A stretch of 64,000 bases of DNA from Escherichia phage UPWr_E1. The position numbers were made by a program, and so were the translations under genes. Positions 2,976 to 61,226 of the stretch are shown in pieces. Numbering within the stretch: position 1 is the stretch's first letter; every line of letters begins with the position of its first letter. The DNA is taken from sequence record PP418985.1; one strand, 5' to 3'. The notes below the pieces were generated by a model. It was not told where the DNA came from. It worked only from the letters and a program-made list of their open reading frames with translations, and ran no database searches.

Positions 2976-3313
2976 TGAACGAAATGAAAATGTATATGAT
3001 CCTAAGTGATTCAGGATACACCTTCTTACAGGGTATTGATAGTGACTCGCGTCCTATTGTTTATGGCAAGGAACACCCGACCATCCCTGGGATCATTCTT
3101 GTTACGACAACATCACTTCGTCGAGTGTCGGAAAGTCCATACCTACAAAACGTAAAGCAAGACCGAGAATGGGCTTTCGAGTTAGGTAAAGATCTTGTTG
3201 AGTGGGTAAACTGTGAAGACAAGAACCAACGAAATCATGAAAGGAAGATTGCACGAATTGTACAGAGAAGAAAACTTGATGAAATCAAAAACAGGATTCT
3301 ACAATCAATGTAA
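2975..3313 (+). CDS. hypothetical protein (112 aa)
   Basis: ATG 2975 after GAGGAAA; overlaps upstream stop. Confidence 0.5.
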   Translation: MNEMKMYMILSDSGYTFLQGIDSDSRPIVYGKEHPTIPGIILVTTTSLRRVSESPYLQNVKQDREWAFELGKDLVEWVNCEDKNQRNHERKIARIVQRRKLDEIKNRILQSM

Positions 3314-3542
3314 CAGGGTATTCATTGTCCTGATGGATTCAGAAAACTATCCAGAACTCGCTAAAACGCGTTTCCCTTGCGTTGTTGAAGCATATAAGGT
3401 AAATGCACCGGATAAACAGTTTATCGTGTTAGCGAGCGAAATAGAGAGGTTAGGGGCGATTCCTAAACATGATGAATATATGTTTCGTAAGGTGTGCTCT
3501 GTACATCATTTTGATGTAGTAGTTAATTCACTAAAATCATAA
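3279..3542 (+). CDS. hypothetical protein (start uncertain)
   Basis: Track ORF 3213-3542 overlaps previous gene by 100 nt in another frame; downstream ATG chosen, no clear RBS. Confidence 0.3.
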   Translation: MKSKTGFYNQCNRVFIVLMDSENYPELAKTRFPCVVEAYKVNAPDKQFIVLASEIERLGAIPKHDEYMFRKVCSVHHFDVVVNSLKS

Positions 3543-3550
3543 AAAAGTTG

Positions 3551-3579
3551 TTGACAGGGGATCACGTATCCCCTATACT
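3551..3579 (+). promoter_or_regulatory. early promoter with spacer stem-loop (type I)
   Basis: TTGACA 3551-3556; GGGGAT-cacgt-ATCCCC 3557-3573; TATACT 3574-3579. Confidence 0.75.
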
Positions 3580-3621
3580 ACACACATCAAAACGAAACAC
3601 ACTTTCTTAAGGAGAATCAAA

Positions 3622-3900
3622 ATGAGCAACCTGTCTTTCGCTAAAGTAGAAATCACCAAAACTCGCGGTGGCTTTAAAATCAAAACTTCCAATATCACTT
3701 CCTGCCGTGGTTGCGTCCGGTTTGCGTTCGACTTAGCAGCGAAGCTGGGTATTAAAACCTTCACCGTTGAGAGCGGATCTAACTGGACCACTCTGATTGT
3801 TACTGCCGCTTGGATCAATGGCGAGTATGTAGAAAAAGCATACTTTGACATTTTCTATGACTACGAAGAAAAATGCTTTTATGCACTGCAAGACATGTAA
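3622..3900 (+). CDS. hypothetical protein (92 aa)
   Basis: ATG 3622 after AAGGAGAATCAAA; stem-loop promoter 3551-3579. Confidence 0.6.
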   Translation: MSNLSFAKVEITKTRGGFKIKTSNITSCRGCVRFAFDLAAKLGIKTFTVESGSNWTTLIVTAAWINGEYVEKAYFDIFYDYEEKCFYALQDM

Positions 3901-3910
3901 GGAGGATAAC

Positions 3911-4222
3911 GTGACAACACAAGATATTGTTAATGTTCTTTATATCTGGCCTACTGGTGCAATGATCTCGTATCTAGTATTCTGCTTGTACGCCAGATTC
4001 GACAAGGACACCAAAGAGGTCGATACAGGAGCATTTTGTATTGCTGCAATCGTATGGCCTATAACGTGGACAGTGGTTAATATTGTTATGTGCTATAAAG
4101 GATTGAAATGTTTTGGTTTGATGATTGCTGGTAAACCGGAAGCTAAACCGCGCACACATACCGGATTCAGTCCAAAACCAGTCGATGACGACGGTCGATA
4201 TAAACCGGAAGAAGATTTTTAA
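3911..4222 (+). CDS. hypothetical membrane protein (about 103 aa, GTG start)
   Basis: GTG 3911 follows AAGGAGGA; two hydrophobic segments; track start 3845 overlaps upstream gene. Confidence 0.45.
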   Translation: MTTQDIVNVLYIWPTGAMISYLVFCLYARFDKDTKEVDTGAFCIAAIVWPITWTVVNIVMCYKGLKCFGLMIAGKPEAKPRTHTGFSPKPVDDDGRYKPEEDF

Positions 4223-4229
4223 AAAACTG

Positions 4230-4266
4230 TTGACATGAAAATGCGGTTATCCTATAATAGCCGCAT
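4230..4266 (+). promoter_or_regulatory. early promoter with hairpin enclosing the -10
   Basis: TTGACA 4230-4235; TATAAT 4253-4258; inverted repeat ATGCGG 4241-4246 / CCGCAT 4261-4266. Confidence 0.65.
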
Positions 4267-4292
4267 CAAATGAACGATGTGAGGATTATATT

Positions 4293-4601
4293 ATGTTTAT
4301 CTCTTCTGCTACTCCAGTTAAAGTTTATGGCGAAACTGTGTATCTTCCGGCTGGCTATTGCTATGTTATCGTTGACCGTCACGGTGTAGTATATGCTTTT
4401 AAAGGTCGTCCGGTTGAAATTGATTCTGAATACGGTACATGGGGATATAAGGCCGCATACATGGATATTCCTGATTTTGGGGTACGCTTAGGAAGATTTG
4501 ATAATGATGTTAAACCATGCCTGATTAAGTATGCATCCTATGGTAAAACTGTTAAACCAAATAGCGTCGGTTGGATTGATGACGGCGTTAACGTGAAATA
4601 A
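4293..4601 (+). CDS. hypothetical protein (102 aa)
   Basis: ATG 4293 after GAGGATTATATT; promoter 4230-4266. Confidence 0.6.
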   Translation: MFISSATPVKVYGETVYLPAGYCYVIVDRHGVVYAFKGRPVEIDSEYGTWGYKAAYMDIPDFGVRLGRFDNDVKPCLIKYASYGKTVKPNSVGWIDDGVNVK

Positions 4602-4615
4602 TGTGAGGTGAATTT

Positions 4616-4909
4616 ATGCTGTCTACTCGTAAAATGGTTGTTGGTGTCGCTGAAAATGCTTTAGAAATCGCTGATGAGGCTTTGACCGTCGCTTATGTTC
4701 AACGTGAAGAATTGCTATTGAAACACGCGGACATGTTGGTTGAACTGAAAGAAGCGATCAAGGCTGGTAAAAGAAGCACCGCTATTGCCATTAAACTTTC
4801 TGATAGTGAAGATGAGATCGTGGAGATCCACACTAAGATTAAGGAAGTAGAAAAATACTCTGAAATGCTGCGACATAATCTTGATGAATTGGGGGTAAAT
4901 CATGGCTAA
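4616..4909 (+). CDS. hypothetical helical protein (97 aa)
   Basis: ATG 4616 after GTGAGGTGAATTT. Confidence 0.55.
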   Translation: MLSTRKMVVGVAENALEIADEALTVAYVQREELLLKHADMLVELKEAIKAGKRSTAIAIKLSDSEDEIVEIHTKIKEVEKYSEMLRHNLDELGVNHG

Positions 4910-5123
4910 GTTACGATCTGGACGAGTTTTAACGCTGGCTGAACTGAAAGAAAAAGGTTTAGACCCTGATTCTGTCGGTATTAGACCTATTAATTACATT
5001 CTGTTTCTAGAGGGTAAACTCTTTACTAATGCTCATCCAGCATTAAATGCACCACATTTTTATAAGTGCAATGACTTTAACGGTTATATCGTTCCAGAAT
5101 ATTTCTTAGAATTTGATGATTAA
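4902..5123 (+). CDS. hypothetical protein (73 aa)
   Basis: ORF overlapping upstream stop. Confidence 0.5.
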   Translation: MAKLRSGRVLTLAELKEKGLDPDSVGIRPINYILFLEGKLFTNAHPALNAPHFYKCNDFNGYIVPEYFLEFDD

Positions 5124-5409
5124 TATAAAACATTCACCGACCGGAAAGGGGTCGGTGATCTTCAATGATGATAAACCGTTAATCTTAATTCGAAATGGTG
5201 ACTGGACATTACATGATACCCGTGTTACTATCCATTCACCGCCTAAAGAGATTCAACGGGAATTGGTTAGGATCGCCCTAACCGATAAGCATAAAGAGGC
5301 GGTAGGCTATTCTCTTTTGAAGTTGGGTGTTGACTTTCCTTTCGAGTATACGCTAACATTCAGAGAGCAGTCAGTGAAGCTAACAGAGATTCTATTCTCT
5401 GAGATATGA
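5116..5409 (+). CDS. hypothetical protein (97 aa)
   Basis: ATG 5116; a perfect 9-bp hairpin (5134-5158) lies inside the 5' coding region. Confidence 0.45.
   Translation: MINIKHSPTGKGSVIFNDDKPLILIRNGDWTLHDTRVTIHSPPKEIQRELVRIALTDKHKEAVGYSLLKLGVDFPFEYTLTFREQSVKLTEILFSEI
5134..5158 (+). other. perfect 9-bp stem hairpin inside a coding region
   Basis: TCACCGACC-ggaaagg-GGTCGGTGA; no T-run follows. Confidence 0.5.
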
Positions 5410-5419
5410 GGATTATATA

Positions 5420-5851
5420 ATGGTTTATCCAACTCCTAGTAAGATTTACATCGATGATACCCATTTTATGGTTGATATGATGGGTATCACTTTTAGCGGT
5501 AAGATTAATATTGTAGAATGGGAATTACACGGTCAACCTGTTACTGACTATGACCACTATATCCCTTTTTTGGGTGATGATAATTTTGTTTCGTTTGACC
5601 ATGAAGGTTACATGATCTTTGAACAGTCCGACGTGCCTTTGTATCTTGCAATGATGCAAATTCCTACGAAAGTTTCTGTTGCTGAGGGTGATTGCGATTG
5701 TTGCGGTTGGTATACTGTAACAGATATTAAGTTGCCATCCGGTAAAGAACTTTACAATGAAGACCATTTTGGAAACTGCAATTTTCCGTGTGATTGGGAA
5801 GAATTTTTCGAACTGGTAGAAATTGAAAGAACTTATTTGAGGAAGGGATAA
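5420..5851 (+). CDS. hypothetical Cys-rich protein (143 aa)
   Basis: ATG 5420 after GAGGATTATATA. Confidence 0.55.
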   Translation: MVYPTPSKIYIDDTHFMVDMMGITFSGKINIVEWELHGQPVTDYDHYIPFLGDDNFVSFDHEGYMIFEQSDVPLYLAMMQIPTKVSVAEGDCDCCGWYTVTDIKLPSGKELYNEDHFGNCNFPCDWEEFFELVEIERTYLRKG

Positions 5852-6663
5852 TGAAGAAAGCATTAGGTTTAATTCCCTATACTGGCAATAAGGAAAAGTT
5901 ATTGCCATGTGTTAGTAAGTATTTCCCTAAGCATTATAACCGCTTTGTTGATGCCTTTTGTGGCGGCTTGAGCGTGTCTCTGTACGTCGAAGGTGATGTG
6001 CTGGCTAATGACTATGATCACCGCTTAATTGATGCTTACAAAGCGATTGACGAGTGTCCTGATCCGGTTTCTACGATCAAGCGGATTATTTCCGAAAATG
6101 GTTTGTCTCGTGATGATAAAGATGCTTACATGGCATTCCGTAAGAAGTATAACGAGAATCCAGATCCACTATCGCTGTTTGTGTTGATTCAGCATAGTTT
6201 TAGCAACATTAACCGTCATAACCGGAAGGGAGAATTTAATGCTAATTTTGGTCGCCGGACTTTTAACGAAAACGCGGTAGAGCGTGTCCTGAATTTTAAA
6301 GAAGAAAACAAAGACGGTCGAATCAATTTTACGTCTGGTCGTTATGACGAGATCGAGATCTTGCCCGGTGATTTCGTTTATTTGGACCCGCCGTACCTTA
6401 TCACTTCTGCGGAATATAATAAGTTCTGGAGTGACGAGGAAGAGATTAAATTCTATCAGTGGGTAGAATCTATTATGGCGAGTGGTTTTCAGTTTGGTAT
6501 CAGTAATGTCACACATCATAAGGGAAAGGTAAATGATCATCTTCTTGACTTTATCAAGCGGAATGATTTAAACTGCGTCCTGTTGAATAAGACCTATTGC
6601 CTAGATCGTTCAGGTGGCAAGTCTTCTGATACGCAAGAAGTTTATGTAACTAACGTAGATTGA
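5851..6663 (+). CDS. dam: DNA adenine (N6) methyltransferase, Dam family
   Basis: 270 aa; FCGGLSV (motif I) and DPPY (motif IV); colinear by eye with remembered T4 Dam. Confidence 0.9.
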   Translation: MKKALGLIPYTGNKEKLLPCVSKYFPKHYNRFVDAFCGGLSVSLYVEGDVLANDYDHRLIDAYKAIDECPDPVSTIKRIISENGLSRDDKDAYMAFRKKYNENPDPLSLFVLIQHSFSNINRHNRKGEFNANFGRRTFNENAVERVLNFKEENKDGRINFTSGRYDEIEILPGDFVYLDPPYLITSAEYNKFWSDEEEIKFYQWVESIMASGFQFGISNVTHHKGKVNDHLLDFIKRNDLNCVLLNKTYCLDRSGGKSSDTQEVYVTNVD

Positions 6664-7451: not shown

Positions 7452-7454
7452 TAG

Positions 7455-7489
7455 TTGACAATAAGAAATGGGAGTAGTAAAATACTCCC
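7455..7489 (+). promoter_or_regulatory. early promoter with -10 inside hairpin loop (type II)
   Basis: TTGACA 7455-7460; GGGAGTA 7470-7476 / TACTCCC 7483-7489; TAAAAT 7478-7483. Confidence 0.7.
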
Positions 7490-7514
7490 ATCTAATCAAG
7501 AAGGAGAATCAACA

Positions 7515-7787
7515 ATGCGTAAGATGTTTAAAGCTGGTGTTGCCTATGTTTTTAAATCTGAGCAAGCACGTAAAGACTTCTTAGAGGATGACTACGAAGG
7601 ATTGAAAGATACCTACGAAGCAATCAAGAATGGATTTACTGTTCTTAAAGTGTCACCCATTGGTTATGTAAGTGAAATCTCGGTTGACGGGAAAACATAT
7701 ACCGCTAAAGACTTTGATCCGCGTTGGGAATTTATGCTGCTTCCGTGTGACCGCATTCTGTTTCGTGCTGTTCAATTAGTGAAATGA
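7515..7787 (+). CDS. repeat-domain family protein (1 module, 91 aa)
   Basis: ATG 7515 after AAGGAGAATCAAC; stem-loop promoter 7455-7489; GFxVLKV...DG.TY module. Confidence 0.6.
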   Translation: MRKMFKAGVAYVFKSEQARKDFLEDDYEGLKDTYEAIKNGFTVLKVSPIGYVSEISVDGKTYTAKDFDPRWEFMLLPCDRILFRAVQLVK

Positions 7788-7801
7788 TAGAGGATTATAT
7801 T

Positions 7802-8362
7802 ATGGTACAGAAAACGTATAAATTGTATCCGGCTAAGTCTTCAAATGATACTGTTTTTGAACGAGGTCGTTATTACACTTTCCGTAATGCTGAGTCCGCA
7901 GAGGAATTTGTTAAACGCTATCCACAACATAACAAGTTCCTGTATGGTGTGCTTCACAAGGGCTTTAAAGTTCTGACGGTTAATGTTATGGGTAAAGTGT
8001 ATTTGGTAGAAACTCATGATTATGAGGGCGCGTCAATCATGATTGATGCAAGCGAGCGCAAATACTTTAAACGCATCACTAAAAAGCAGTTTGAAGAAAT
8101 GAAACCAGTTAAGAAAGAAGACTCTCTGGAAGATCTGATTAACTTGTTTGGTAAAGTTCGCTCTATCTCCTTTGCGATTGAAGATGACATTACCGACAAT
8201 AAAATCTTTATCAAGAACGCGGAAGACCTGAAAGAGTTCCTTATTGAAAATAGATCTCGGCTGGAAACCTTTCTTGAAAGTGAAATTATTCGACATGATA
8301 CCTACGCTAAATTCAGCGCCGAGAAAGTGGAAGAACTGAAAGAGATTAAAAAGTCACTTTAA
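7802..8362 (+). CDS. repeat-domain family protein (module + C-terminal helical LKEFL region)
   Basis: ATG 7802 after AGAGGATTATATT (alternative in-frame ATG 7784); GFKVL...ERKYFKRI motif. Confidence 0.55.
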   Translation: MVQKTYKLYPAKSSNDTVFERGRYYTFRNAESAEEFVKRYPQHNKFLYGVLHKGFKVLTVNVMGKVYLVETHDYEGASIMIDASERKYFKRITKKQFEEMKPVKKEDSLEDLINLFGKVRSISFAIEDDITDNKIFIKNAEDLKEFLIENRSRLETFLESEIIRHDTYAKFSAEKVEELKEIKKSL

Positions 8363-8365
8363 CGC

Positions 8366-8400
8366 TTGACATGATGAAACGGGAGTAGTAAGATACTCCC
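8366..8400 (+). promoter_or_regulatory. early promoter with -10 inside hairpin loop (type II)
   Basis: TTGACA 8366-8371; GGGAGTA 8381-8387 / TACTCCC 8394-8400; TAAGAT 8389-8394. Confidence 0.7.
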
Positions 8401-8425
8401 ATCTAAACAACGAGAGGATTACATT

Positions 8426-9604
8426 ATGGCTAAATTCTTTGAAGGGCATTACTATGCATTCCGTGAAGGCGGTAAAGATGAGTTTCTAGATTTTTCTCGC
8501 TATTCAACTATTCTGACCGATGCTTCGCGCCGTGGTCATATTCGGGTTGCTGGAATCGTAGAAAAGGGCTTTAAAGTATTAGAAAAAGATGACCACGGTC
8601 ATGTTGTTACTATTGAAGCTGGTGATGTGGTTTATTCCGCTAAGGATATTGTGGATTATTGGGCTACTATGATCATGCACAATGAGCGCAAATACTTTAA
8701 ACGTATCTCAAAAGAGACATACGAAGCAATGAATAAGAAAGAGGATGTAATGCCGACCTACTTTGAAAAAGGTAAATGTTATTCATTCACTCCAGAAGGT
8801 TTGCAAGAATTTAAGCGATTCTGGGGAGAGCATGATCCAGAACACAAAGAAGCCATGAAACTTGTTGATTTTGTTGAGTATGGCTTTTTAGTTGAAGAAG
8901 AATTTCACGGATCAGCTACCATGATCACCGCGAAAGATGAAACCGTCAAGGCAGAACGTTTTTGTGACCAATGGAATTGCTTGTTTGATGGTAGCGAATT
9001 TGAATACTTCGCAGAGATCACCCGCGCTGAATATACCCGTATGCAAGAACGTGGTCAGAGATTTAAAGTAGGCGAACGCTACAAGCCAAATCCACATAAT
9101 TTGCCTCATTGGTTTAACACTGAAACCGTATCAAGTCATGTTATTGAAATTGTTCAAACGCTGGAACATGGATTTAAGGTAACTAAAGTAGATTCTTTCG
9201 GAAGTGTTGACGCGGTTGAAGTTGATGGTGTAGAATATACTCCTAAATCTTTTGGGCTTTGCTGGTATCACCTGATCAGCAATGATGAACGTTATTACTT
9301 TGTTGAACTGCCATCTGAACCGGAAGAAGCACTAGAAGATCATGATCATCTGTCTGAACTGGTTAAACTGTTTGGTGATCTGCCGGGTGGTGTAGGGGTG
9401 GCGGTAATGGGTGAAGGTGCTGTTATTCGCAACCTGAAAGACCTTAAAAAGTTCTTGTTCGACATGCTGCCTAAACTCGATGAGAATCTAGATACAGATA
9501 TTCAGAATCGCAAAGAAATTGTTAAAGAGACTGAAAAAGAGATCGAAGAGATTCGAGCAATTCGCCAGAAGGTGAAAGCAGTAAAGAAAAAAGTTAGTGC
9601 TTGA
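8426..9604 (+). CDS. repeat-domain family protein (3 modules + C-terminal helical region, 392 aa)
   Basis: Stem-loop promoter 8366-8400; internal repeats each ending ERKYFKRI / EFEYFAEI / ERYYFVEL. Confidence 0.65.
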   Translation: MAKFFEGHYYAFREGGKDEFLDFSRYSTILTDASRRGHIRVAGIVEKGFKVLEKDDHGHVVTIEAGDVVYSAKDIVDYWATMIMHNERKYFKRISKETYEAMNKKEDVMPTYFEKGKCYSFTPEGLQEFKRFWGEHDPEHKEAMKLVDFVEYGFLVEEEFHGSATMITAKDETVKAERFCDQWNCLFDGSEFEYFAEITRAEYTRMQERGQRFKVGERYKPNPHNLPHWFNTETVSSHVIEIVQTLEHGFKVTKVDSFGSVDAVEVDGVEYTPKSFGLCWYHLISNDERYYFVELPSEPEEALEDHDHLSELVKLFGDLPGGVGVAVMGEGAVIRNLKDLKKFLFDMLPKLDENLDTDIQNRKEIVKETEKEIEEIRAIRQKVKAVKKKVSA

Positions 9605-9634
9605 CATGCAAAGGGAGTATGCTATAATACTCCC
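9601..9634 (+). promoter_or_regulatory. early promoter with -10 inside hairpin loop (type II)
   Basis: TTGACA 9601-9606; GGGAGTAT 9613-9620 / ATACTCCC 9627-9634; TATAAT 9623-9628. Confidence 0.75.
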
Positions 9635-9658
9635 ACTTAACAACGAGAGGATTATATT

Positions 9659-10153
9659 ATGTGGGTACAAGATATTTGGTATACTGTAACTAAAGAAAAC
9701 CTTGACGCATTCAGCGACCAATCTTGCGCTAATAGCTCAATTGCTGGTATCCTTACTGATGTGTTTGGGGGTGTAGATAAAATTCGTTTTAAAGTTGTTG
9801 TTAGTTCGCTGGGTCAGGTGAAAGATCTTTACACCGACGATAAAGACCTTGATCTTAAACTTCGTCTTCGTATTGAAAATGCAAGTCTAGGTTATTGGTT
9901 TGAAGATAACGAATATGAATACTTCACACCAGCAATTAAAGTTTTTGCAACTAAACTGGAAGCTGTACTGAATCTTCGACCAATTAATGTTGACGGGTAC
10001 ATTATTAAAAATCTTCAGGAGTGGGATTCATATCTAGCTCAAGTTATCCGTAACAGCAAGCAGGAAGCCGCTAATAAGAAACGACAAGAGATCAAACAGC
10101 TTAAAGCTGAACTAGAAGCGGCAGAAAAAGAATTAGCAGAACTGGTAAAATAA
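9659..10153 (+). CDS. hypothetical protein with C-terminal coiled coil (164 aa)
   Basis: Stem-loop promoter 9601-9634; terminator 10163-10185 downstream. Confidence 0.6.
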   Translation: MWVQDIWYTVTKENLDAFSDQSCANSSIAGILTDVFGGVDKIRFKVVVSSLGQVKDLYTDDKDLDLKLRLRIENASLGYWFEDNEYEYFTPAIKVFATKLEAVLNLRPINVDGYIIKNLQEWDSYLAQVIRNSKQEAANKKRQEIKQLKAELEAAEKELAELVK

Positions 10154-10162
10154 CTATCAACG

Positions 10163-10185
10163 AGCGGGAGAAATCCCGCTTTTTC
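10163..10185 (+). terminator. intrinsic terminator
   Basis: AGCGGGA-gaaa-TCCCGCT then TTTTT. Confidence 0.8.
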
Positions 10186-10197
10186 ATAGGTGATACA

Positions 10198-12163: not shown

Positions 12164-12700
12164 ATGTTTTGTGTACTGAATAAAGAAATTAAAATTCGCA
12201 AGTTAGAAATTGGTGATGGTGTAGTTGTTAAAATGCACGCTAGCACACTGGCTAGCTTTGGTACAAAAGAAAGTTTCTTTATTATGGGAACTGTTGTTAA
12301 TATCTGCTGGAGTAAAGGCGAAGGCACACAAATCCGTAGTTTTTGTGTCGTTGACGAAGATAATAATCTGTATGTGATTCGCTATCAGAATCAATCTGTA
12401 TTGGTTTATACCGATAATTCACGAGAACTGTATACGCTGGACTTTGCTAAACTATGTGATTGTGATAAAAAGATTCAGGCGTACCACACAGAAGGCTGTT
12501 TTGGTGTTGGCGTCGAAGAGGAAGAGTACATCCCATTGGAAGTCGGGGCAGAAATTAAACATAGTGCCACGGATCGTATTTTTACGGTTGTTGCTGTTAA
12601 TGCAACTCAATTTGTAGCACAAGCACATAATACGGGATTCGTTATCTATGACATTGGTAATGCAAGTTCTCATTTTGAGGGCGTACAATTTCGTTTATAA
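12164..12700 (+). CDS. hypothetical protein (178 aa)
   Basis: Promoter 12104-12131; ATG 12164 after AGAGGATAACATT. Confidence 0.55.
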   Translation: MFCVLNKEIKIRKLEIGDGVVVKMHASTLASFGTKESFFIMGTVVNICWSKGEGTQIRSFCVVDEDNNLYVIRYQNQSVLVYTDNSRELYTLDFAKLCDCDKKIQAYHTEGCFGVGVEEEEYIPLEVGAEIKHSATDRIFTVVAVNATQFVAQAHNTGFVIYDIGNASSHFEGVQFRL

Positions 12701-12712
12701 TGTGAGGTGATT

Positions 12713-13243
12713 ATGTCTAAGTTATTGAATCGTAAGCGTAAAGCACAACGACACAAAGAACGAGCTAAAAAGATTGCTATTGAACTCTGTGAGCGTGAGG
12801 ATAGCTATTTGTCTACTGGTCGTTTGCATACATTCCATGCATTGATTGATGGTAAGCCAGTGTTGCATAATCATGATTGCTTGGCACTGTTTCACGAAAT
12901 CGAACCAATTCATCGTGAATGGGATGACAACAAAGCAAAAGGTCAATATTTCCTTACTTGTTCGTGCGGTCATGCTGGATGTGCTGGATATTGGGAACCT
13001 GTTACTATCCGCGAGAAAAATGATACTATTCAATGGGTTGCCCGTACCCGCGATGGTTATGATAAAGGTGCTGATTGTACTGGTGATAACGTAGTTTACT
13101 TTAATCGTGATTGGTATTATATGGCGCGATGTATGATCCTGTTTTATCTTGACTCGATGCCGTATGAATATTTCAGTTTCCAGAATGGGACCGAACTTAC
13201 TGGTAGAGAATGGTCTGAATACATTCGAAAAAATTTAAAATAA
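12713..13243 (+). CDS. hypothetical protein, basic N-terminus, Cys/His cluster (176 aa)
   Basis: ATG 12713 after GTGAGGTGATT; CSCGHAGCAGYW motif. Confidence 0.55.
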   Translation: MSKLLNRKRKAQRHKERAKKIAIELCEREDSYLSTGRLHTFHALIDGKPVLHNHDCLALFHEIEPIHREWDDNKAKGQYFLTCSCGHAGCAGYWEPVTIREKNDTIQWVARTRDGYDKGADCTGDNVVYFNRDWYYMARCMILFYLDSMPYEYFSFQNGTELTGREWSEYIRKNLK

Positions 13244-13471: not shown

Positions 13472-13964
13472 TACATACGGCAAACTACGCTATGCCGATA
13501 TTAAAGATTGTGATATGGTTAACGGTGAGGGAGTGAGAGTCTCCCTTTACGTTACCGGATGTTCACACGCATGTGATGGTTGCTTTAATGCTAGCCTACT
13601 CAATCCTAAGAACGGGGAACCATTCACCGATGATACAATGGGATTGGTTTTGGATCTGCTTAGACCGGATTTTATTCAGGGGCTAACCTTCTTAGGTGGT
13701 GATCCGTTGTATAAACGAAATTTAAAGGGTGTACAACGGATCATTGATGAAGTAAAATCATGGATGCCAAATAAAGATATTTGGCTATGGTCCGGTTATA
13801 CCCTTGACCAATTGAATGATGAGCAAAGAAAAATTATAGAATCAGTTGACATGTTCATCGATGGTCGGTATATTAAAGACATGCCAACGAAGAAGCCGTG
13901 GCGGGGGTCTGACAATCAAGTACAATACAAGATTGTTGATAATATCCCAGTGAAAATTATTTGA
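13461..13964 (+). CDS. nrdG: anaerobic ribonucleotide reductase activating protein (radical SAM)
   Basis: Cys cluster CSHACDGC; size about 167 aa; track start 13455 is TTG, ATG 13461 preferred. Confidence 0.85.
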   Translation: MSSDTYGKLRYADIKDCDMVNGEGVRVSLYVTGCSHACDGCFNASLLNPKNGEPFTDDTMGLVLDLLRPDFIQGLTFLGGDPLYKRNLKGVQRIIDEVKSWMPNKDIWLWSGYTLDQLNDEQRKIIESVDMFIDGRYIKDMPTKKPWRGSDNQVQYKIVDNIPVKII

Positions 13965-13974
13965 GGTGATTATT

Positions 13975-14463
13975 ATGAAATGGGAATTGGGTAAGATGTA
14001 CACTCTTGATGGTGACGAGAAGAAAGCAGAATTTACCAAATCGGAACTGTCAATAAACCGTCAAGTTGCCGAGTTTCTTGATGGGCGTCCTTTTACCGTC
14101 GAGGCTATGAGTAATGAGGGTCATGTTCTTGAAATCTCGTTAAGTGATGGTAAATGTATTTCTGTTCTGGACACTCCAATTGGTGCACATGGCGCGTGGT
14201 TTTGGGCTGGTGAACGTCGATTCTTTAAAGAAGTTAAAGAACCGGATTTAACCTTAGAACGTCTGGGTCTGCTTATGGAAGCCTACGACATTCAGTTAAT
14301 CGACAAGACGGGTCTACAACATAGTATTGCCAAAATTACTACCCTAGAAGGTATTAAGAGCGTTCTAAATGGTATGCCTAGCCGGATCGGTGCTATCCGC
14401 GAATACAAGCAAACGCGCGACCGTATGATCCAATTAGAATCACGTATCAAAAATGAGAGATAA
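13975..14463 (+). CDS. repeat-domain family protein (MKWExGK module + helical C-terminus)
   Basis: ATG 13975 after GAGGTGATTATT; MKWELGKMY...DGRPFTV...ERRFFKEV. Confidence 0.6.
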   Translation: MKWELGKMYTLDGDEKKAEFTKSELSINRQVAEFLDGRPFTVEAMSNEGHVLEISLSDGKCISVLDTPIGAHGAWFWAGERRFFKEVKEPDLTLERLGLLMEAYDIQLIDKTGLQHSIAKITTLEGIKSVLNGMPSRIGAIREYKQTRDRMIQLESRIKNER

Positions 14464-14467
14464 TATT

Positions 14468-14953
14468 ATGAAATGGGAAGAAGGTAAGACCTATGTGTTG
14501 GTTGGCGAGTACGAAAAGCGTATTTTGCGTGATTGTTGGCGTTACGAACAAAGACCTAATATTGATGGCAGGTTTACATATCTCGATAAACCATTTATTG
14601 TTGCTACGGTAGACCGTTGGGGTAATGTGCGTTCAATCTATAATCACGAAGGGGATTATATTAGTTCTATCGATATTGGTGATAATATATGGTTTTCCGA
14701 TGGCGACCGAGCGTGCTTCAAAGAAGTTTTATTACCTGGCCATGAACATGATCTAATCGATCTTCTCAAATTGGCGATGGATAATTATAAAATTCGTTTT
14801 GAATGCAAATCACATGCGGCTATCGGTGCTAACGCCTTGCGTCATATCTCCAGTTTTGAAGAGTTGAAAGATTTTCTTGACAAAATGCCGGAAAGAGTTC
14901 AAGCTATACAGGAAGCTGAGAAAGCGTTAAACGAACTTGATAAAATCGGTTAA
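14468..14953 (+). CDS. repeat-domain family protein
   Basis: MKWEEGKTY...DKPFIV...DRACFKEV; ATG 14468. Confidence 0.6.
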   Translation: MKWEEGKTYVLVGEYEKRILRDCWRYEQRPNIDGRFTYLDKPFIVATVDRWGNVRSIYNHEGDYISSIDIGDNIWFSDGDRACFKEVLLPGHEHDLIDLLKLAMDNYKIRFECKSHAAIGANALRHISSFEELKDFLDKMPERVQAIQEAEKALNELDKIG

Positions 14954-14965
14954 GAGGATTATATT

Positions 14966-15799
14966 ATGAAATGGGAAATTGGTAAAACTTACACTTGGAA
15001 AGATGAAAACGCTAAAACTGCGTTTATTGCTAACATAGAAGGTGTTCTTTCTCCGCTTAATAGCGATATTAGCGAAGCTATTGGCGACAAGCCATTTACA
15101 ATCATCGAGATCGAGGGTAATGGTTGGATTGATGTAATAGAGCTAGACGGTGTTTATCATACGGCGAAAACTGCTACAGGAAAAGACATTTGGACATCAA
15201 CATATTTCTTTAGTCCATTCGATAGAAAATTCTTTCGTGAAGTTGAAGAAGTTCCTCCTAAATGGGAAGTTGGTAAAACTTATATTTGGAAGGATGTAAA
15301 CGCAAAAGTGACGTTTTCTCACTGTTCTAATATCAACCGTAAAATTGCTGATTGGATAGGAGATGAGACTTTTACGGTATCTTCCGTTGATTCTGTTGGT
15401 TTCGTTACTATGATCGACGTCAATAATGATAATGCTTGTGGAACATTTAATCCTCATTCAGCTGGTGTTGATGATGATGTTGATGCTGTGTGGTTTGTTG
15501 GGCTTGAACGAAAATATTTTCGTGAAGTTGAAACAGTGAAAGAACCAGAAGAAAAGGTGAACGATGATTCTAAGATCGTTGGACAGTTGAAACGTCTGTT
15601 TAGTAGTCGTTATGGCCTGACAATGGTTAAATTTGGCGAAGCAAATGAAGGTAAAACCTTTGAACGTTTCGATGATTTCATTGCAGCACTTGACAAAATG
15701 GACGAAATCATGCAAGATCGCCAGAAGATTAAAGACCTTCAAGAAGATATTAAACGTCGTGAAGTTGAATTTTTGATTGGTAAAGAGCGAGGTTGGTAA
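14966..15799 (+). CDS. repeat-domain family protein (2 tandem modules + helical C-terminus, 277 aa)
   Basis: MKWEIGKTYTW...DRKFFREV then KWEVGKTYIW...ERKYFREV; ATG after GAGGATTATATT. Confidence 0.65.
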   Translation: MKWEIGKTYTWKDENAKTAFIANIEGVLSPLNSDISEAIGDKPFTIIEIEGNGWIDVIELDGVYHTAKTATGKDIWTSTYFFSPFDRKFFREVEEVPPKWEVGKTYIWKDVNAKVTFSHCSNINRKIADWIGDETFTVSSVDSVGFVTMIDVNNDNACGTFNPHSAGVDDDVDAVWFVGLERKYFREVETVKEPEEKVNDDSKIVGQLKRLFSSRYGLTMVKFGEANEGKTFERFDDFIAALDKMDEIMQDRQKIKDLQEDIKRREVEFLIGKERGW

Positions 15800-15800
15800 T

Positions 15801-16283
15801 ATGTTTGTTGTCGGTATGACCTATCAGTGGAAAGATAATAAAACGCGCGAAGATTTTACAAACTCTAGCGTTGCAAATGATGCAATAGCAGAGTTTATCG
15901 GCGACCGTCCATTTAAAGTTATTGCGTTTGATCACCATGCACCGGATATCGAATATGTTTCTGTGATTGAAATTGATGGCACGATATACACCTGCCGCAA
16001 TGTTGATGATGTACGTGAATACGCGCACAACTGGTTTTTGCAATCAGAAGAACGTTATTTTAAAGTGGTATCGGCAGAACTGACCACCGATGCAATGTTG
16101 GAACATTTTTTCAACAACTACGAAGTTTCTGTGCGTCGATATGGTGAAGAGGAAGTGTTTAAAATTGATGACTATAATCAATTTAAACGAGTATTTGCCA
16201 CTAAGTTACAGCATGATGTTGAACGCGAACAACGCATCAAGGAACTGGAAGAAGAACTGGAACGATTAAAGGCAGAGAAATGA
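15801..16283 (+). CDS. repeat-domain family protein (1 module + coiled-coil C-terminus)
   Basis: MTYQWKD...DRPFKV...ERYFKVV; ELEEELERLKAEK tail; ATG 15801. Confidence 0.6.
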   Translation: MFVVGMTYQWKDNKTREDFTNSSVANDAIAEFIGDRPFKVIAFDHHAPDIEYVSVIEIDGTIYTCRNVDDVREYAHNWFLQSEERYFKVVSAELTTDAMLEHFFNNYEVSVRRYGEEEVFKIDDYNQFKRVFATKLQHDVEREQRIKELEEELERLKAEK

Positions 16284-16549
16284 TCGAGGTCTACGGCATA
16301 CCTAAAGAGGCTTATCATTGTTATGGCTGTATCAATGCAATGAAGCTACTCGACGATCTGGGTATTCCGTATACACTTAAACCAGTATTCAAGCAGGTCG
16401 GGGTTGACATTATTCCCGACCGTGATATGATTGAAGAACTGGCGGGGAGGCTGAACTCAAAGAGCCTCCGATTTGTATACCCCCAGATATTCATTGACAA
16501 CGAGCACATTGGAGGCTATAAAGAACTGAGGGATATTTATGATTATTGA
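16280..16549 (+). CDS. nrdH: glutaredoxin-like protein (NrdH-like redoxin)
   Basis: CYGC redox motif, PQIFIDNEHIGGY C-terminus; near nrdG as in T4. Confidence 0.7.
   Translation: MIEVYGIPKEAYHCYGCINAMKLLDDLGIPYTLKPVFKQVGVDIIPDRDMIEELAGRLNSKSLRFVYPQIFIDNEHIGGYKELRDIYDY
16396..16431 (+). promoter_or_regulatory. promoter-like element embedded in the nrdH-like coding sequence
   Basis: Hairpin GGTCGGG 16396-16402 / CCCGACC 16415-16421 enclosing TTGACA 16404-16409; TGaTATGAT 16423-16431. Confidence 0.4.
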
Positions 16550-31615: not shown

Positions 31616-31933
31616 ATGGATAAGAAACCAACAAGTTTAGAAGAAGCACACGGCTTGATTCAAGAAGCAATGAAGACAGTTATTCAGGAACTGATAATTG
31701 TTGATGAAGAGGGAGAGCATCATATTGTCTATATTCATAATGTTGAATACGATCCAGACACTAAAGGTATTGTGGTCGACTACTCCACGCCGTCAGATCG
31801 TGATGTGGTATATCCTCACGTCATTAAGGCGTTAACAGCGCAGATCAAAGAAGCAGAAGAAAAGTTGAAAAAAGAAACTTTCTGGTATAAACTCAAGACC
31901 TTTGTTATGCGTGTAGTTGGGGGCTATGTATGA
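31616..31933 (+). CDS. hypothetical protein in gene 40 position (105 aa)
   Basis: ATG 31616 after AGAGGATTATATT; terminator 31573-31595 upstream; positional only. Confidence 0.5.
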   Translation: MDKKPTSLEEAHGLIQEAMKTVIQELIIVDEEGEHHIVYIHNVEYDPDTKGIVVDYSTPSDRDVVYPHVIKALTAQIKEAEEKLKKETFWYKLKTFVMRVVGGYV

Positions 31934-33342
31934 TTAAAACTATCTTTTCACAGTTGATTTACAATGGCGCATTCTTTACGAATGTATGGCCTCACCTTAA
32001 AGCGGACTACTTCACCGAAGACGAAGAAAAACTGATTTATAAGCTGATTAAAAAGCACGTAGACGAATATTCCAATATTCCTACGCCAACTGCATTACAG
32101 ATTGCTTTAGACAAGGAGAGAGGCAATCAGACAACATATGAAGGGGCTAAAACTCTTCTTGATTCGCTTGAGAATACACCGGAAGACCTTGATTGGTTAA
32201 TGAAGGAAACCGAAAAATTTATTCGTGACCGTGCCATGTATAATGCAATGTCACGGGCGCTAGAGATTCAAGCGAACGCACAACTACCAAAAGAGAAACA
32301 GAATAAGAAATTGCCTGGCGAGGGAGCTATTCCTGAGATCATGCAGGAAGCACTATCCATTACGTTTGATTCTGATGTAGGTCATGACTGGTTTAATGAC
32401 TTTGAAAAACGATTCTTGCTATATCAGACTAAGGCGAATAAGATCCCGTTTAAGCTGCCGATGTTGAATAAAATCACGAAAGGTGGGGCAGAGAAAAAGA
32501 CATTGAATGTTTTACTCGCTGGTGTAAACGTTGGCAAATCATTGGGTTTGTGTTCTCTTGCTGCGGACTATATGGAATGCGGTTATAATGTTCTGTATAT
32601 CTCAATGGAGATGGCAGAGCACGTAGTAGCAAAACGTATTGACGCAAATTTGCTTGACATTACCTTAGATGAATTGGATAATGGCAATGTTTCCTTTGCT
32701 GAATATTCCGCACGCATGAAACGTGTCAAGAATAAGAAAGCAGGAGAACGTCCAATCGGCAAGCTGATGATCAAGCAGTATCCGACTGGTGGCGCGAACT
32801 CCAACCACTTTGAGGCGTTAATGAATGAATTGCGACTCAAGAAACAGTTTAAACCTGATGTTGTGATTGTTGACTATCTGGGGATTTGCGCATCGTCTCG
32901 TTTGCGTGTATACTCTGAAAATAGTTACACACTAGTTAAAGCTATTGCGGAAGAATTGCGCGGATTTTTTGTTAAGTGGGATGTTGTTGGTTGGACTGCG
33001 GCACAGACTACCCGTGCTGGTTGGGACGCATCGGATCTTAACATGAGTGATACCGCTGAATCAGCAGGTCTTCCGGCTACAGCCGATTTTATGTTGGGTG
33101 TAATTGAAACCGAAGACCTTGCAAAAATGGGTGTTCAATTACTCAAGCAGATTAAATCTCGTTACGGTGATAAGAACTACTATTCACGGTTTAACGTTGG
33201 TGTGAAAAAAGGAAATCAGCGTTGGTATGAAGTTCCAAACCAGATCGCAGATCAGGAGAATGCACAAGTTAAACCACAAAGCGCACAGCAAGCAGAGAAA
33301 CGAGAAAAACTCGACGAGCTAGCAAATAACATGACTTTCTAA
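31930..33342 (+). CDS. 41: replicative DNA helicase gp41 (DnaB-like)
   Basis: 470 aa; Walker A GVNVGKS in C-terminal RecA-like domain; position after uvsX. Confidence 0.9.
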   Translation: MIKTIFSQLIYNGAFFTNVWPHLKADYFTEDEEKLIYKLIKKHVDEYSNIPTPTALQIALDKERGNQTTYEGAKTLLDSLENTPEDLDWLMKETEKFIRDRAMYNAMSRALEIQANAQLPKEKQNKKLPGEGAIPEIMQEALSITFDSDVGHDWFNDFEKRFLLYQTKANKIPFKLPMLNKITKGGAEKKTLNVLLAGVNVGKSLGLCSLAADYMECGYNVLYISMEMAEHVVAKRIDANLLDITLDELDNGNVSFAEYSARMKRVKNKKAGERPIGKLMIKQYPTGGANSNHFEALMNELRLKKQFKPDVVIVDYLGICASSRLRVYSENSYTLVKAIAEELRGFFVKWDVVGWTAAQTTRAGWDASDLNMSDTAESAGLPATADFMLGVIETEDLAKMGVQLLKQIKSRYGDKNYYSRFNVGVKKGNQRWYEVPNQIADQENAQVKPQSAQQAEKREKLDELANNMTF

Positions 33343-33392: not shown

Positions 33393-34028
33393 ATGATCGC
33401 TAATGCTTTACCGCCAAAATGGATCGTAAGTCGTTTTTATACTCTAAAGGAAGGTAACGCGCCTGATGGTCGTCCGATCCGAGATCTGTTTCTGGAGATG
33501 ACTACAGCCGAAGCACAGTTTTATAATGATCTGACAGACGATAAGCCATTTCTCGTAAATTCGGTGGACCTTGATGGCAATGTCACATCAATCATCACAC
33601 ATGGTGGGGGAGTGAAAAATATTACTTCTCTGCGTGATCACGGTTGGGAAATTTCTTGTGTATTTCCTGCGGATGTACGCGGATTCTTTGATGAGGTATC
33701 TGATATTAAAGTAAATGCACTGGAACCATATGACGAGATCCCACCACTGAAAGAAGAAAAAGAGTTGACACCGGAAGATGTAGGTAGTACACTACACCCT
33801 GACCTATTTAAGAAGATTAGCGGTTTATGGACTGTTACCCTGTATCCAACCGTATTAGGTTTAGAATTGGGTATGCCAACTTATTCTGATATTGATAATT
33901 GGACTAAGCACATCGATAAAGATGTTGAAAAACAGCGAAACAATGCTAAAATGCAACTTAAAGAGAAACGCAAAGATCTTGAACGACAACTGAAAGAAAC
34001 AAAACATTTGCTTTCTACGTTCGCTTGA
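33393..34028 (+). CDS. repeat-domain family protein (divergent copy, 211 aa)
   Basis: PKWIVSRFYTL...DDKPFLV...DG.V...VRGFFDEV; ATG 33393 after AGGAGATATAAC. Confidence 0.55.
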   Translation: MIANALPPKWIVSRFYTLKEGNAPDGRPIRDLFLEMTTAEAQFYNDLTDDKPFLVNSVDLDGNVTSIITHGGGVKNITSLRDHGWEISCVFPADVRGFFDEVSDIKVNALEPYDEIPPLKEEKELTPEDVGSTLHPDLFKKISGLWTVTLYPTVLGLELGMPTYSDIDNWTKHIDKDVEKQRNNAKMQLKEKRKDLERQLKETKHLLSTFA

Positions 34029-50520: not shown

Positions 50521-50555
50521 ATTGACACCAGAACAAGGGAGTAGTAACATACTCC
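50521..50555 (+). promoter_or_regulatory. early promoter with -10 inside hairpin loop (type II)
   Basis: TTGACA 50521-50526; GGGAGTA 50536-50542 / TACTCCC 50549-50555; TAACAT 50544-50549. Confidence 0.7.
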
Positions 50556-50580
50556 CACACCAAACAAAAGGAGAATCAAA

Positions 50581-51541: not shown

Positions 51542-51576
51542 TTGACACCGGATTAAGGGAGTAGTAAGATACTCCC
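51542..51576 (+). promoter_or_regulatory. early promoter with -10 inside hairpin loop (type II)
   Basis: TTGACA 51542-51547; GGGAGTA 51557-51563 / TACTCCC 51570-51576; TAAGAT 51565-51570. Confidence 0.7.
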
Positions 51577-51604: not shown

Positions 51605-52372
51605 ATGAAAAACCTGATCGCTGCTATCATTCTTTCTGCTACTGCTTTCGGTGCTAATGCTGCGTCCTTCGATTGCGCTAAAGCTACTACCAAATCAGAG
51701 AAGTTTATTTGCGCGAATGAGTCTATCTCCGAACTGGATTCTAAACTTCATGAAGTATATGTTAAAGCTGTTAAGATTGATCCGTCTCTGAAACAAGAGC
51801 AACGCAACTGGAATAAAACTGTTCGTGATACAATGATCAATATCGGGCAGATTCAGCCACTGGAGGCTGTATATAACGCTCAAATTCAAAACTTGATGAA
51901 TGTATTGCCTAAAGAAGAAACCTCGTCAGAAAGAGAATCAGAGGCTTCTGTGAAGGTTGAAGAACAACAACCGAAACAGGAAGAAAAAGTTGTAGTTCAA
52001 CCGAAGAAAGAAAAGAAACCACAAACCAGCGAGTTTACCTTGCAATGTGAATCTCACTTTAAATGGAAAAATATCGACGGAGCAAACACTAAGCCGAAAG
52101 CACAGCCATTTTATAAAGAGTACAATCCAGGTGAATTGACTCTGAAAGTAAAAGATGGTCAGATTATCCATTTTACATACATCGACAATAATGATGTGCA
52201 TAAGGCAAACACAAAACGAGTAGTTGATGACAACGGAATGATCGTTTTTAGCGGCTGGAAAGAAAATAAAAAGTATTATGTGTGGCGTGAACAGGATAGC
52301 GATATCATTCGCTTAGAAGTCCGCGAACAAGGATACTCTAAAATCTATGTTGACCAGTACGGGTGCAGATAA
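51605..52372 (+). CDS. secreted protein with N-terminal DUF1311 (LprI/YecT-like) domain
   Basis: Signal peptide MKNLIAAIILSATAFGANA; FDCAKATTKSEKFICANESISELDSKLHEVY fits the C..A....E..IC....L...D..L...Y DUF1311 signature; Lys/Glu-rich linker; stem-loop promoter 51542-51576. Confidence 0.65.
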   Translation: MKNLIAAIILSATAFGANAASFDCAKATTKSEKFICANESISELDSKLHEVYVKAVKIDPSLKQEQRNWNKTVRDTMINIGQIQPLEAVYNAQIQNLMNVLPKEETSSERESEASVKVEEQQPKQEEKVVVQPKKEKKPQTSEFTLQCESHFKWKNIDGANTKPKAQPFYKEYNPGELTLKVKDGQIIHFTYIDNNDVHKANTKRVVDDNGMIVFSGWKENKKYYVWREQDSDIIRLEVREQGYSKIYVDQYGCR

Positions 52373-61218: not shown

Positions 61219-61226
61219 TATTTATA
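61219..61226 (-). promoter_or_regulatory. T4-type late promoter (TATAAATA) for the gene 36-like tail fibre gene
   Basis: + strand TATTTATA 61219-61226 = TATAAATA on - strand, about 34 nt upstream of ATG 61185 with GAGGT RBS between. Confidence 0.65.

Follow-up and report, generated by a model that had tools for sequence, protein, structure and literature searches.

Paralogs of the phage T4 GoF/Frd.2/MotB.1 family fill the gene 49-nrdD interval of the RB49-like Escherichia phage UPWr_E1

Introduction

The goF gene of bacteriophage T4 has been a standing problem since the rho-suppressor genetics of about 1980. Here we describe genes that we assign, with very little doubt, to the same family as GoF and that lie in series between gene 49 and nrdD of Escherichia phage UPWr_E1 (PP418985.1), an RB49-like phage of the Krischvirus group (Straboviridae). 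The stretch of DNA analyzed, referred to below as the window, is 64,000 nucleotides (nt) long, and coordinates refer to it unless another sequence is named.

GoF and two further T4 proteins (Frd.2, MotB.1) were set out as one family by Kim et al. in 2025 (PMC12152347). The family traits are an N-terminal bent five-stranded "LSm-like" barrel, a flexible linker, and a C-terminal domain that varies. The family consists of early, dispensable genes whose function in the wild type is unknown. GoF itself is made early, at an estimated ~20,000 copies per cell, and its D25Y form stabilizes an mRNA that has the 5' untranslated region of gene 41 (PMC12152347). That study makes no mention of RB49, Krischvirus, or tandem modules.

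A second described system concerns the promoter-early stem-loop (PeSL) elements of RB49 and phi1 (Arbiol et al. 2010, PMC2839356). In each of them, a strong sigma-70 promoter is paired with a stem-loop that serves as terminator or attenuator; the promoter and terminator activities have been established experimentally. PeSLs recombine with one another and excise gene-carrying mini-circles, and nrdD was named as PeSL associated (PMC2839356).

Four genes between gene 49 and nrdD share one module

In UPWr_E1, the span from gene 49 to nrdD covers positions 7452-10197 and holds four plus-strand genes, here called A to D. Gene A (7515-7787) encodes 90 amino acids (aa), consisting of one predicted GoF-family barrel with no C-terminal tail. 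Gene B (7802-8362; 186 aa) has a barrel at about aa 15-100, which a linker joins to a helical tail; gene C (8426-9604; 392 aa) has three barrels and a tail; and gene D (9659-10153; 164 aa) has a barrel at about aa 1-95 and a tail with a terminal helix. They are the orthologs of RB49p060, p059, p058, and p057, respectively, with ~94% DNA identity for A, B, and C. An earlier sequence-only reading of this DNA had placed the open reading frames (ORFs) of A, B, and C exactly here. It had proposed that they are built from a common module of roughly 90 aa, that the third holds three such modules in tandem, and that the same family recurs in a second cluster (cluster 2, 13975-16283; genes E to H), the two clusters flanking nrdD-nrdG.

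Ten modules were cut from the window for the building of hidden Markov models (HMMs), and each module was scored by an HMM built without it, with E-values scaled to 2014 ORFs. The module proved to be common to the three genes, with leave-one-out E-values from 4.8e-8 to 7.8e-18: gene A scored 6.9e-15, and modules 1, 2, and 3 of gene C scored 4e-15, 4.8e-8, and 7.7e-11, module 2 being the weakest of the ten. An HMM made from cluster 2 only detects A, B, and C, and one made from cluster 1 only (7515-9604) detects G and H. The leave-one-out and cross-cluster scores together show that the repeat family is real and far above chance, and that it is paralogous across both clusters.

The tandem arrangement in gene C was likewise borne out. 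The full-length protein gives three separate full-length HMM domain matches, at aa 1-100 (8426-8725), ~107-206 (8744-9043), and ~209-302 (9050-9331), ahead of an acidic linker, a helical tail, and the stop codon (9332-9604; aa 303-392), and its structural model repeats one pattern three times (see below). In blastp comparisons, gene B matches C at three distinct sites (E 6.5e-10, 1.5e-7, and 1e-3), with 35% identity to module 1 over 127 aa, and gene A matches C and one cluster 2 gene at E ~1e-7. The recurring words quoted in the earlier reading are present as GFTVLKV, GFKVLTV, GFKVLEK, and GFKVTKV, with ERKYFKRI in gene B and module 1 of gene C and ERYYFVEL in module 3. The helical tail that it had described as shared was recovered in a tail-only blastp comparison of B with C (28% identity over 57 aa, E 2.7e-5).

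Contrary to what had been supposed, the cluster extends beyond 9604. Gene D is a fourth, divergent member: an enriched family HMM (see below) trained without D matches it over the full module (E 7.5e-8), and hhalign gives 73% with E 3e-5. A, B, C, and D are all family members, and the family therefore takes up the entire interval from gene 49 to nrdD. Gene 49 of T4 overlaps nrdD by 4 nt, and the junction there is therefore compact, just as the sequence-only reading had said. A terminator-like hairpin, GCGGGA-GAAA-TCCCGC followed by TTTTT (10164-10184, plus strand), closes cluster 1 14 nt ahead of nrdD; it was read from the sequence and was not listed by the automatic scan, and an Rfam search over it gave a match to isrF only, below threshold.

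Across segment 7400-10200, identity to RB49, Cognac, phi1-like, and other Krischvirus phages is 94-96%, and all 58 of the 58 matching records are Krischvirus. Cluster 1 is present at full length and 90-99% identity in 56-57 of these 58 related phages.

Two stretches of coding DNA are repeated within the cluster. Positions 8054-8103 of gene B and 8684-8733 of gene C module 1, which cover the ERKYFKRI segment, are 80% identical over 50 nt, and positions 8983-9013 of gene C module 2 and 9898-9928 of gene D, in the strand-5 region, are 84% identical over 31 nt. Set against the ~30% protein identity elsewhere, these repeats suggest gene conversion or recent duplication.

Assignment of the module to the GoF/Frd.2/MotB.1 family

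We consider it very nearly certain that the module is the N-terminal domain of the T4 GoF (ComC-alpha)/Frd.2/MotB.1 family, a five-stranded SH3-like ("LSm-like") barrel. Against all six-frame T4 ORFs, the HMM built only from window modules matched two proteins over their full module, GoF at E 1.9e-11 and Frd.2 at E 5.3e-6, and nothing else, and the HMM built only from cluster 2 also matched GoF (E 2.2e-10). The window-only profile was then run against 1.84e9 representative proteins and returned 89 matches, including a GoF ortholog (P0163, E 1e-6). About 75 of the 89 are short proteins, mostly of 120-270 aa, with the module at the N terminus; the long proteins among them match over ~30 central positions only, repeatedly and weakly, and were judged spurious. 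An HMM enriched with these matches found GoF (9.5e-22), Frd.2 (8.9e-16), and MotB.1 (6.8e-8) and no other T4 ORF. By hhalign, the comparison with Frd.2 gave 94.8%, and that with MotB.1, for which the profile was small, gave 45%. A profile search seeded with a GoF-containing alignment returned nearly all GoF orthologs; being circular, it was not used as evidence.

Existing classifications agree with this placement. T4 GoF and Frd.2 both fall in phrog_622, which is also matched by A, B, C (in three stretches), E, F, G, and H; MotB.1 is in phrog_2333. Gene A falls in phrog_16115, with cross-matches to phrog_622 and phrog_5347. The original RB49 GenBank record calls gene C "frd.2," and the label "goF mRNA metabolism modulator" is given to B and C by PHROGs and, as RB49p059 and p058, by RefSeq. 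Scans of all paralogs against Pfam and NCBIfam gave sub-threshold noise only, and a PDB sequence-profile search with the module gave nothing below E 0.1.

These results bear directly on the view, put forward in the sequence-only reading, that the module is specific to this lineage and has no characterized T4 counterpart. The lack of a significant match in Pfam, NCBIfam, and PDB sequence searches and a gene 49-nrdD location that is absent in T4 would fit that view. The noncircular profile matches to GoF and Frd.2, and more distantly to MotB.1, together with the "frd.2" and "goF" labels and the published family, already refute it, and we give it practically no weight. Given the GoF/Frd.2 assignment, the earlier claim falls in part: profile searches place the module in a family that is known and named. 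The part that stands is that this family is not well characterized, its wild-type function being unknown.

The resemblance to each T4 protein has limits. T4 GoF (141 aa) shares the barrel, the acidic linker and C-terminal region, and the FeoA/SH3-like structural neighbors. It differs in having a single barrel, a short C-terminal domain that the HMM of the window tails does not match, and E-A-G-F-F in place of the family consensus E-R-(K/R)-(Y/F)-F, and in its locus between gene 39 and motB, where RB49 has no family member. T4 Frd.2 (128 aa) has the same barrel and the same PHROG as GoF, with a single module and a short C-terminal domain, and adjoins frd and gene 32, a locus at which RB49 lacks a family member; gene C is a three-module paralog of Frd.2, not its positional ortholog. 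T4 MotB.1 (119 aa) belongs to the same structural family according to PMC12152347 but is much more distant and has a different C-terminal region. In all, T4 has three family genes with a single module each, and a whole-genome HMM scan of RB49 found no family member at the T4 goF, motB.1, or frd.2 positions. In RB49 (3205-5971 of the compared stretch), gene 39 is followed by a 39.2-like gene and then dexA, without the T4 block goF-cef-motB-motB.1-motB.2. An HMM of the window helical tails matched no T4 protein.

During gut-on-a-chip evolution, a 21-bp in-frame deletion within the acidic linker of T4 goF reached 72% frequency, with no growth phenotype found (PMC9271167). Acidic linkers like that of T4 goF also occur in the window proteins.

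Predicted structure of the module and its neighbors

We modeled gene B with AlphaFold2 (AF2) from a 47-sequence family alignment and gene C from an alignment of multi-module proteins only. The gene B model has a mean predicted local distance difference test score (pLDDT) of 86.8, with >90 in the barrel, and places strands at aa 24-27, 55-60, 66-70, 77-81, and 89-92. The elements follow in the order strand 1, two helices, strands 2-4, a helical turn with E-R-K-Y, strand 5, and helices, so that the barrel is marked by a helical hairpin that separates strand 1 from strand 2 and by the conserved E-R-(K/R)-(Y/F)-F entry to strand 5. In the gene C model (mean pLDDT 73.6), the same order occurs three times, at aa 9-94, 118-198, and 218-295, with pLDDT values of 74-94 in 10-residue blocks for module 1. 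As modeled, the window modules would each form a five-stranded barrel, in a family that is known from predicted structures only.

Beyond the barrel or barrels, B, C, D, E to H, and the further paralog Dc2 described below continue into a linker that is acidic or of low confidence, followed by a helical tail; the exception is A, which is a barrel only. The gene C tail is modeled as helices at aa 306-317 and 337-391, the latter a 55-residue final helix, and the gene B tail ends in a 35-residue helix. The long terminal helix, as predicted, is probably an oligomerizing coiled coil.

The nearest structural neighbors of the module are FeoA, the Mib repeat, the myosin SH3 domain, and the Tudor domain of PcrA/UvrD, which binds RNA polymerase. 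The module falls in the FeoA/SloR/IdeR SH3-like neighborhood, as does the GoF family. Foldseek gave nothing below E 0.2 against the PDB. Against BFVD, it found almost only proteins of T4-type phages, including an annotated GoF (E 4e-5) and Dc2, from phages of Aeromonas, Acinetobacter, Citrobacter, Serratia, Pectobacterium, Edwardsiella, Klebsiella, and other hosts; the exceptions were two proteins of other large myoviruses, phAPEC8 and CBB. The likeness to FeoA, the IdeR/DtxR C-terminal domain, Tudor, and KOW is one of fold only, with 13% identity and no profile match, and a transfer of function from FeoA or other SH3-like barrels is not justified. For the same reasons, namely 13% sequence identity and no match at the sequence level, FeoA-like or DtxR/IdeR-type metal-associated SH3 domains that handle iron or manganese are a very improbable identity for the modules. 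Neither FeoB nor the DNA-binding domain of a metal regulator is attached to them, and GoF lacks the metal-coordinating histidine motif of the related DNA-binding regulators (PMC12152347).

Hfq and LSm proteins are also small five-stranded barrels, and they have been proposed as analogs because GoF(D25Y) stabilizes an mRNA. PMC12152347 calls the fold LSm-like, reports Hfq among its structural relatives, and finds that GoF and MotB.1 migrate partly as dimers. Gene C, with three barrels and a long terminal helix, could be imagined as a tail-mediated dimer that makes a six-barrel, Hfq-like ring. True LSm/Hfq-type RNA chaperones acting in rings nevertheless strike us as quite improbable. The window proteins have no Sm1/Sm2 motifs, their helices lie between strands 1 and 2 and not N-terminally as in Sm proteins, and no ring is predicted. 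No Hfq or Sm chain appears among the listed structural matches or in the PDB sequence-profile search, and neither LSM nor Hfq is among the Pfam matches up to E 1. AlphaFold3 gave no confident GoF or MotB.1 multimers, with interface predicted template modeling scores of <0.3 (PMC12152347), and our gene C model, with a predicted template modeling score (pTM) of 0.38, has no confident packing between its barrels.

Cluster 1 is carried in PeSL cassettes

The sequence-only reading had given each of the three genes its own stem-loop promoter, which holds for A and C and fails for B. Before A, C, and D, the layout is an AT-rich stretch, TTGACA, a stem-loop over the -10 element, a Shine-Dalgarno sequence, and ATG, and sigma-70 consensus scores in the promoter scan are 10-12 of 12. 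The element of gene A (7455-7489, plus strand; 11/12) has TTGACA at 7455-7460 and the hairpin GGGAGTA-GTAAAA-TACTCCC at 7470-7489, within which lies the -10 sequence TAAAAT (7478-7483); the Shine-Dalgarno sequence GAAGGAG follows at 7500-7506. That of gene C (8366-8400, plus strand) has TTGACA at 8366-8371 and the hairpin GGGAGTAGTAAGATACTCCC at 8381-8400, and is 73% identical to the gene A element over 79 nt. Gene D is preceded by a perfect TTGACA-16-TATAAT (9601-9634, plus strand; 12/12), with the hairpin GGGAGTA-TGCTATAA-TACTCCC at 9613-9634.

These stem-loop promoters are the published PeSL elements of RB49/phi1 (PMC2839356), with the same architecture in the same phage group and no real difference; the stem of the five copies in the window is GGGAGTA...TACTCCC, compared with the GGGG...CCCC stem stressed in that study. 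The exact motif occurs five times in the window against an expectation of zero, and three of these copies are in cluster 1. Gene B starts 14 nt past the gene A stop codon, with only a ribosome-binding site between them, and, lacking its own promoter, is probably cotranscribed with A. The possibility that A and B are fused by frameshifting was considered and rejected: the two are read in different frames, B is served by a ribosome-binding site of its own, and no evidence points to such a fusion. Read in this way, cluster 1 is a set of three PeSL cassettes, A+B, C, and D, and its sequence would predict early and high expression. Promoter activity of PeSLs has been demonstrated on other copies from RB49 (PMC2839356).

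The T4 late-promoter core TATAAATA does not occur in the cluster 1 region. On both strands of the 64 kb, it is found once (61219-61226, minus strand) against 5.6 expected from shuffles, a scarcity that would fit an early-gene region or, alternatively, a late-promoter consensus of another kind in UPWr_E1. The two further PeSLs, at 50522-50556 and 51542-51576 (plus strand), have an identical stem and lie ahead of unrelated genes, namely a small ORF from ~50579 and a 255-aa protein (51605-52372) with a signal-peptide-like N terminus.

A proposed role in mRNA fate

As an overall explanation, we favor, with modest confidence, four early GoF-family genes that are carried in PeSL cassettes and modulate mRNA fate. 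The mechanism that we can offer for it is more tentative and draws on analogy with T4: abundant, dispensable early proteins may act post-transcriptionally on mRNA fate through multivalent barrels. A to D would be made early from the PeSL sigma-70 promoters, as T4 GoF is made prereplicatively, and the barrel would serve as a binding module for RNA or for a component of the host decay or termination machinery. Tandem barrels and tail-mediated oligomerization would make binding multivalent, and diversification of the paralogs could widen the range of targets or hosts. As to origin, PeSL-flanked cassettes and intragenic modules may have been duplicated and recombined, leaving the DNA traces between B and module 1 of C and between module 2 of C and D.

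Several observations weigh against this explanation. The role in mRNA fate is extrapolated from a gain-of-function mutant of one homolog; wild-type GoF and MotB.1 had only slight effects in the reporter assay (PMC12152347), and no ligand has been demonstrated for any family member. Among ten of the twelve window modules (those of A to C and E to H), eight are acidic, with net charges of -1 to -11, and a mostly acidic set of modules is a poor fit to general RNA binding. The exceptions are B (+4), the only clearly basic barrel, and A (+1); module 2 of gene C is both the most divergent and the most acidic (-11) of the three in that protein. Matches to solved structures are weak, with Z <=5.4 and Foldseek E-values no better than 0.2, and the gene C model, given its low pTM and lack of confident packing, says nothing on how the barrels are arranged. 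Homology of the tails is supported for the B/C pair only: leave-one-out tail HMMs across all eight tailed paralogs gave no match, with shuffled controls reaching up to 15 bits. Early timing, finally, is read from consensus motifs only.

Some of the same evidence would suit barrels that act as SH3/Tudor-like protein-protein adaptors for host targets other than mRNA, in antidefense or host takeover, as an arms-race array; the suppressor phenotype of T4 goF would then arise incidentally from a gain-of-function mutation. The fold is of the SH3 type, with neighbors (FeoA, the Mib repeat, myosin SH3, and PcrA/UvrD Tudor) that are protein-binding or regulatory barrels, the majority of the checked modules are acidic, and wild-type GoF is almost inactive on RNA. 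The genes also lie in hyperplastic, PeSL-shuffled regions typical of adaptive ORFans, and the make-up of cluster 2 is mosaic across the 58 related phages (see below). The sole functional data on the family, however, concern mRNA level or stability and rho alleles, and the near-universal conservation of cluster 1 in the same phages is unlike rapid arms-race turnover. We rate adaptors as nearly as plausible as the mRNA role while doubtful in their own right.

Within the preferred reading of a role in mRNA fate, residue-level clues come from the T4 suppressor substitutions. We aligned 95 modules to the family HMM for column counts. In the column of GoF G84, K occurs in 20 modules and R in 17 (together 37/95), G occurs in 7, and the preceding column is R in 29; K or R stands at this position in B, C module 1, E, both modules of G, and H. 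Given this K/R consensus, the T4 suppressor G84R recreates the basic residue of the family. The column of D25 is variable, with an aromatic residue in ~8 of the 95 modules, including C module 1. Because G84R and D25Y both shift GoF toward residues that are natural in the family, the Krischvirus paralogs might be naturally "active" versions of GoF. On this extension, B and C as wild-type proteins would stabilize phage mRNAs or counter Rho-dependent transcript loss, with tandem barrels and tail dimerization forming a multivalent RNA-binding platform of up to six barrels. The gene B protein has a basic barrel and an isoelectric point of 9.3. We regard the extension as unlikely; if true, an RNA-binding platform of up to six barrels is not yet described for any phage.

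Whatever the role, the natural variants form a panel for the existing mRNA-stability reporter and supply a residue-level hypothesis for suppressor action. The locus is a clear case of PeSL cassettes carrying paralogs of one family, and for annotation, A, D, and cluster 2, which are now "hypothetical," can be assigned to the GoF family.

Cluster 2, Dc2, and the extent of the family

Cluster 2 lies between nrdG and nrdH on the plus strand and comprises E (13975-14463), F (14468-14953), G (14966-15799; two modules), and H (15801-16283), which match phrog_5347 with E-values of 6e-45 to 1e-69. No GGGAGTA...TACTCCC PeSL occurs within it, and its genes abut or overlap. By megablast, the region (13960-16290) is mosaic in the 58 related phages: at least 80% of it is covered in three phages only, and most match it in 2-3 pieces with 53-77% coverage. 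Close relatives of gene G (P0129, P0132, and P0133) exist in two-module (274 aa) and one-module (177-182 aa) forms with the same tail, which suggests that a barrel was recently gained or lost through recombination between tandem modules.

A ninth member, known in RB49 as Dc2, lies at 33393-34028 on the plus strand (211 aa) and matches the HMM at E 3e-6 with window modules only and 5.5e-15 after enrichment. It follows immediately after the helicase gene, 41 (31930-33342), the gene for which T4 GoF(D25Y) alters the mRNA level; in T4, gene 41 is followed by dmd and 61.4, with no family member.

A scan of the whole RB49 genome with the enriched HMM found nine genes and twelve modules, each with a counterpart in the window. 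The family can thus reach nine genes per phage, with the barrel concatenated two to three times per polypeptide. About 10 two-module and 2 other three-module representatives are known elsewhere; full-length gene C as a query finds orthologs at >=85% identity only, and no isolated phage yields a match to a three-module metagenomic protein (P0136). This Krischvirus expansion of nine genes and twelve modules, its proteins combining tandem barrels with a long helix, and the relation of G84R to the family consensus appear to be undescribed.

In Klebsiella phage Matisse (Slopekvirus), gp262 (319 aa), which has two modules, also lies between nrdG and nrdH (5001-5960 of the compared stretch). The family may long have resided in this slot in Straboviridae; the T4 slot contains gene 55.8 only.

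Two ORFs in the interval between nrdD and nrdG, at 12164-12700 and 12713-13243 on the plus strand, were tested as family members and are unrelated. They encode 178 aa (phrog_14838) and 176 aa (phrog_8242), respectively, belong to PHROGs without an assigned function, and have no Pfam match; the second is rich in Cys and His.

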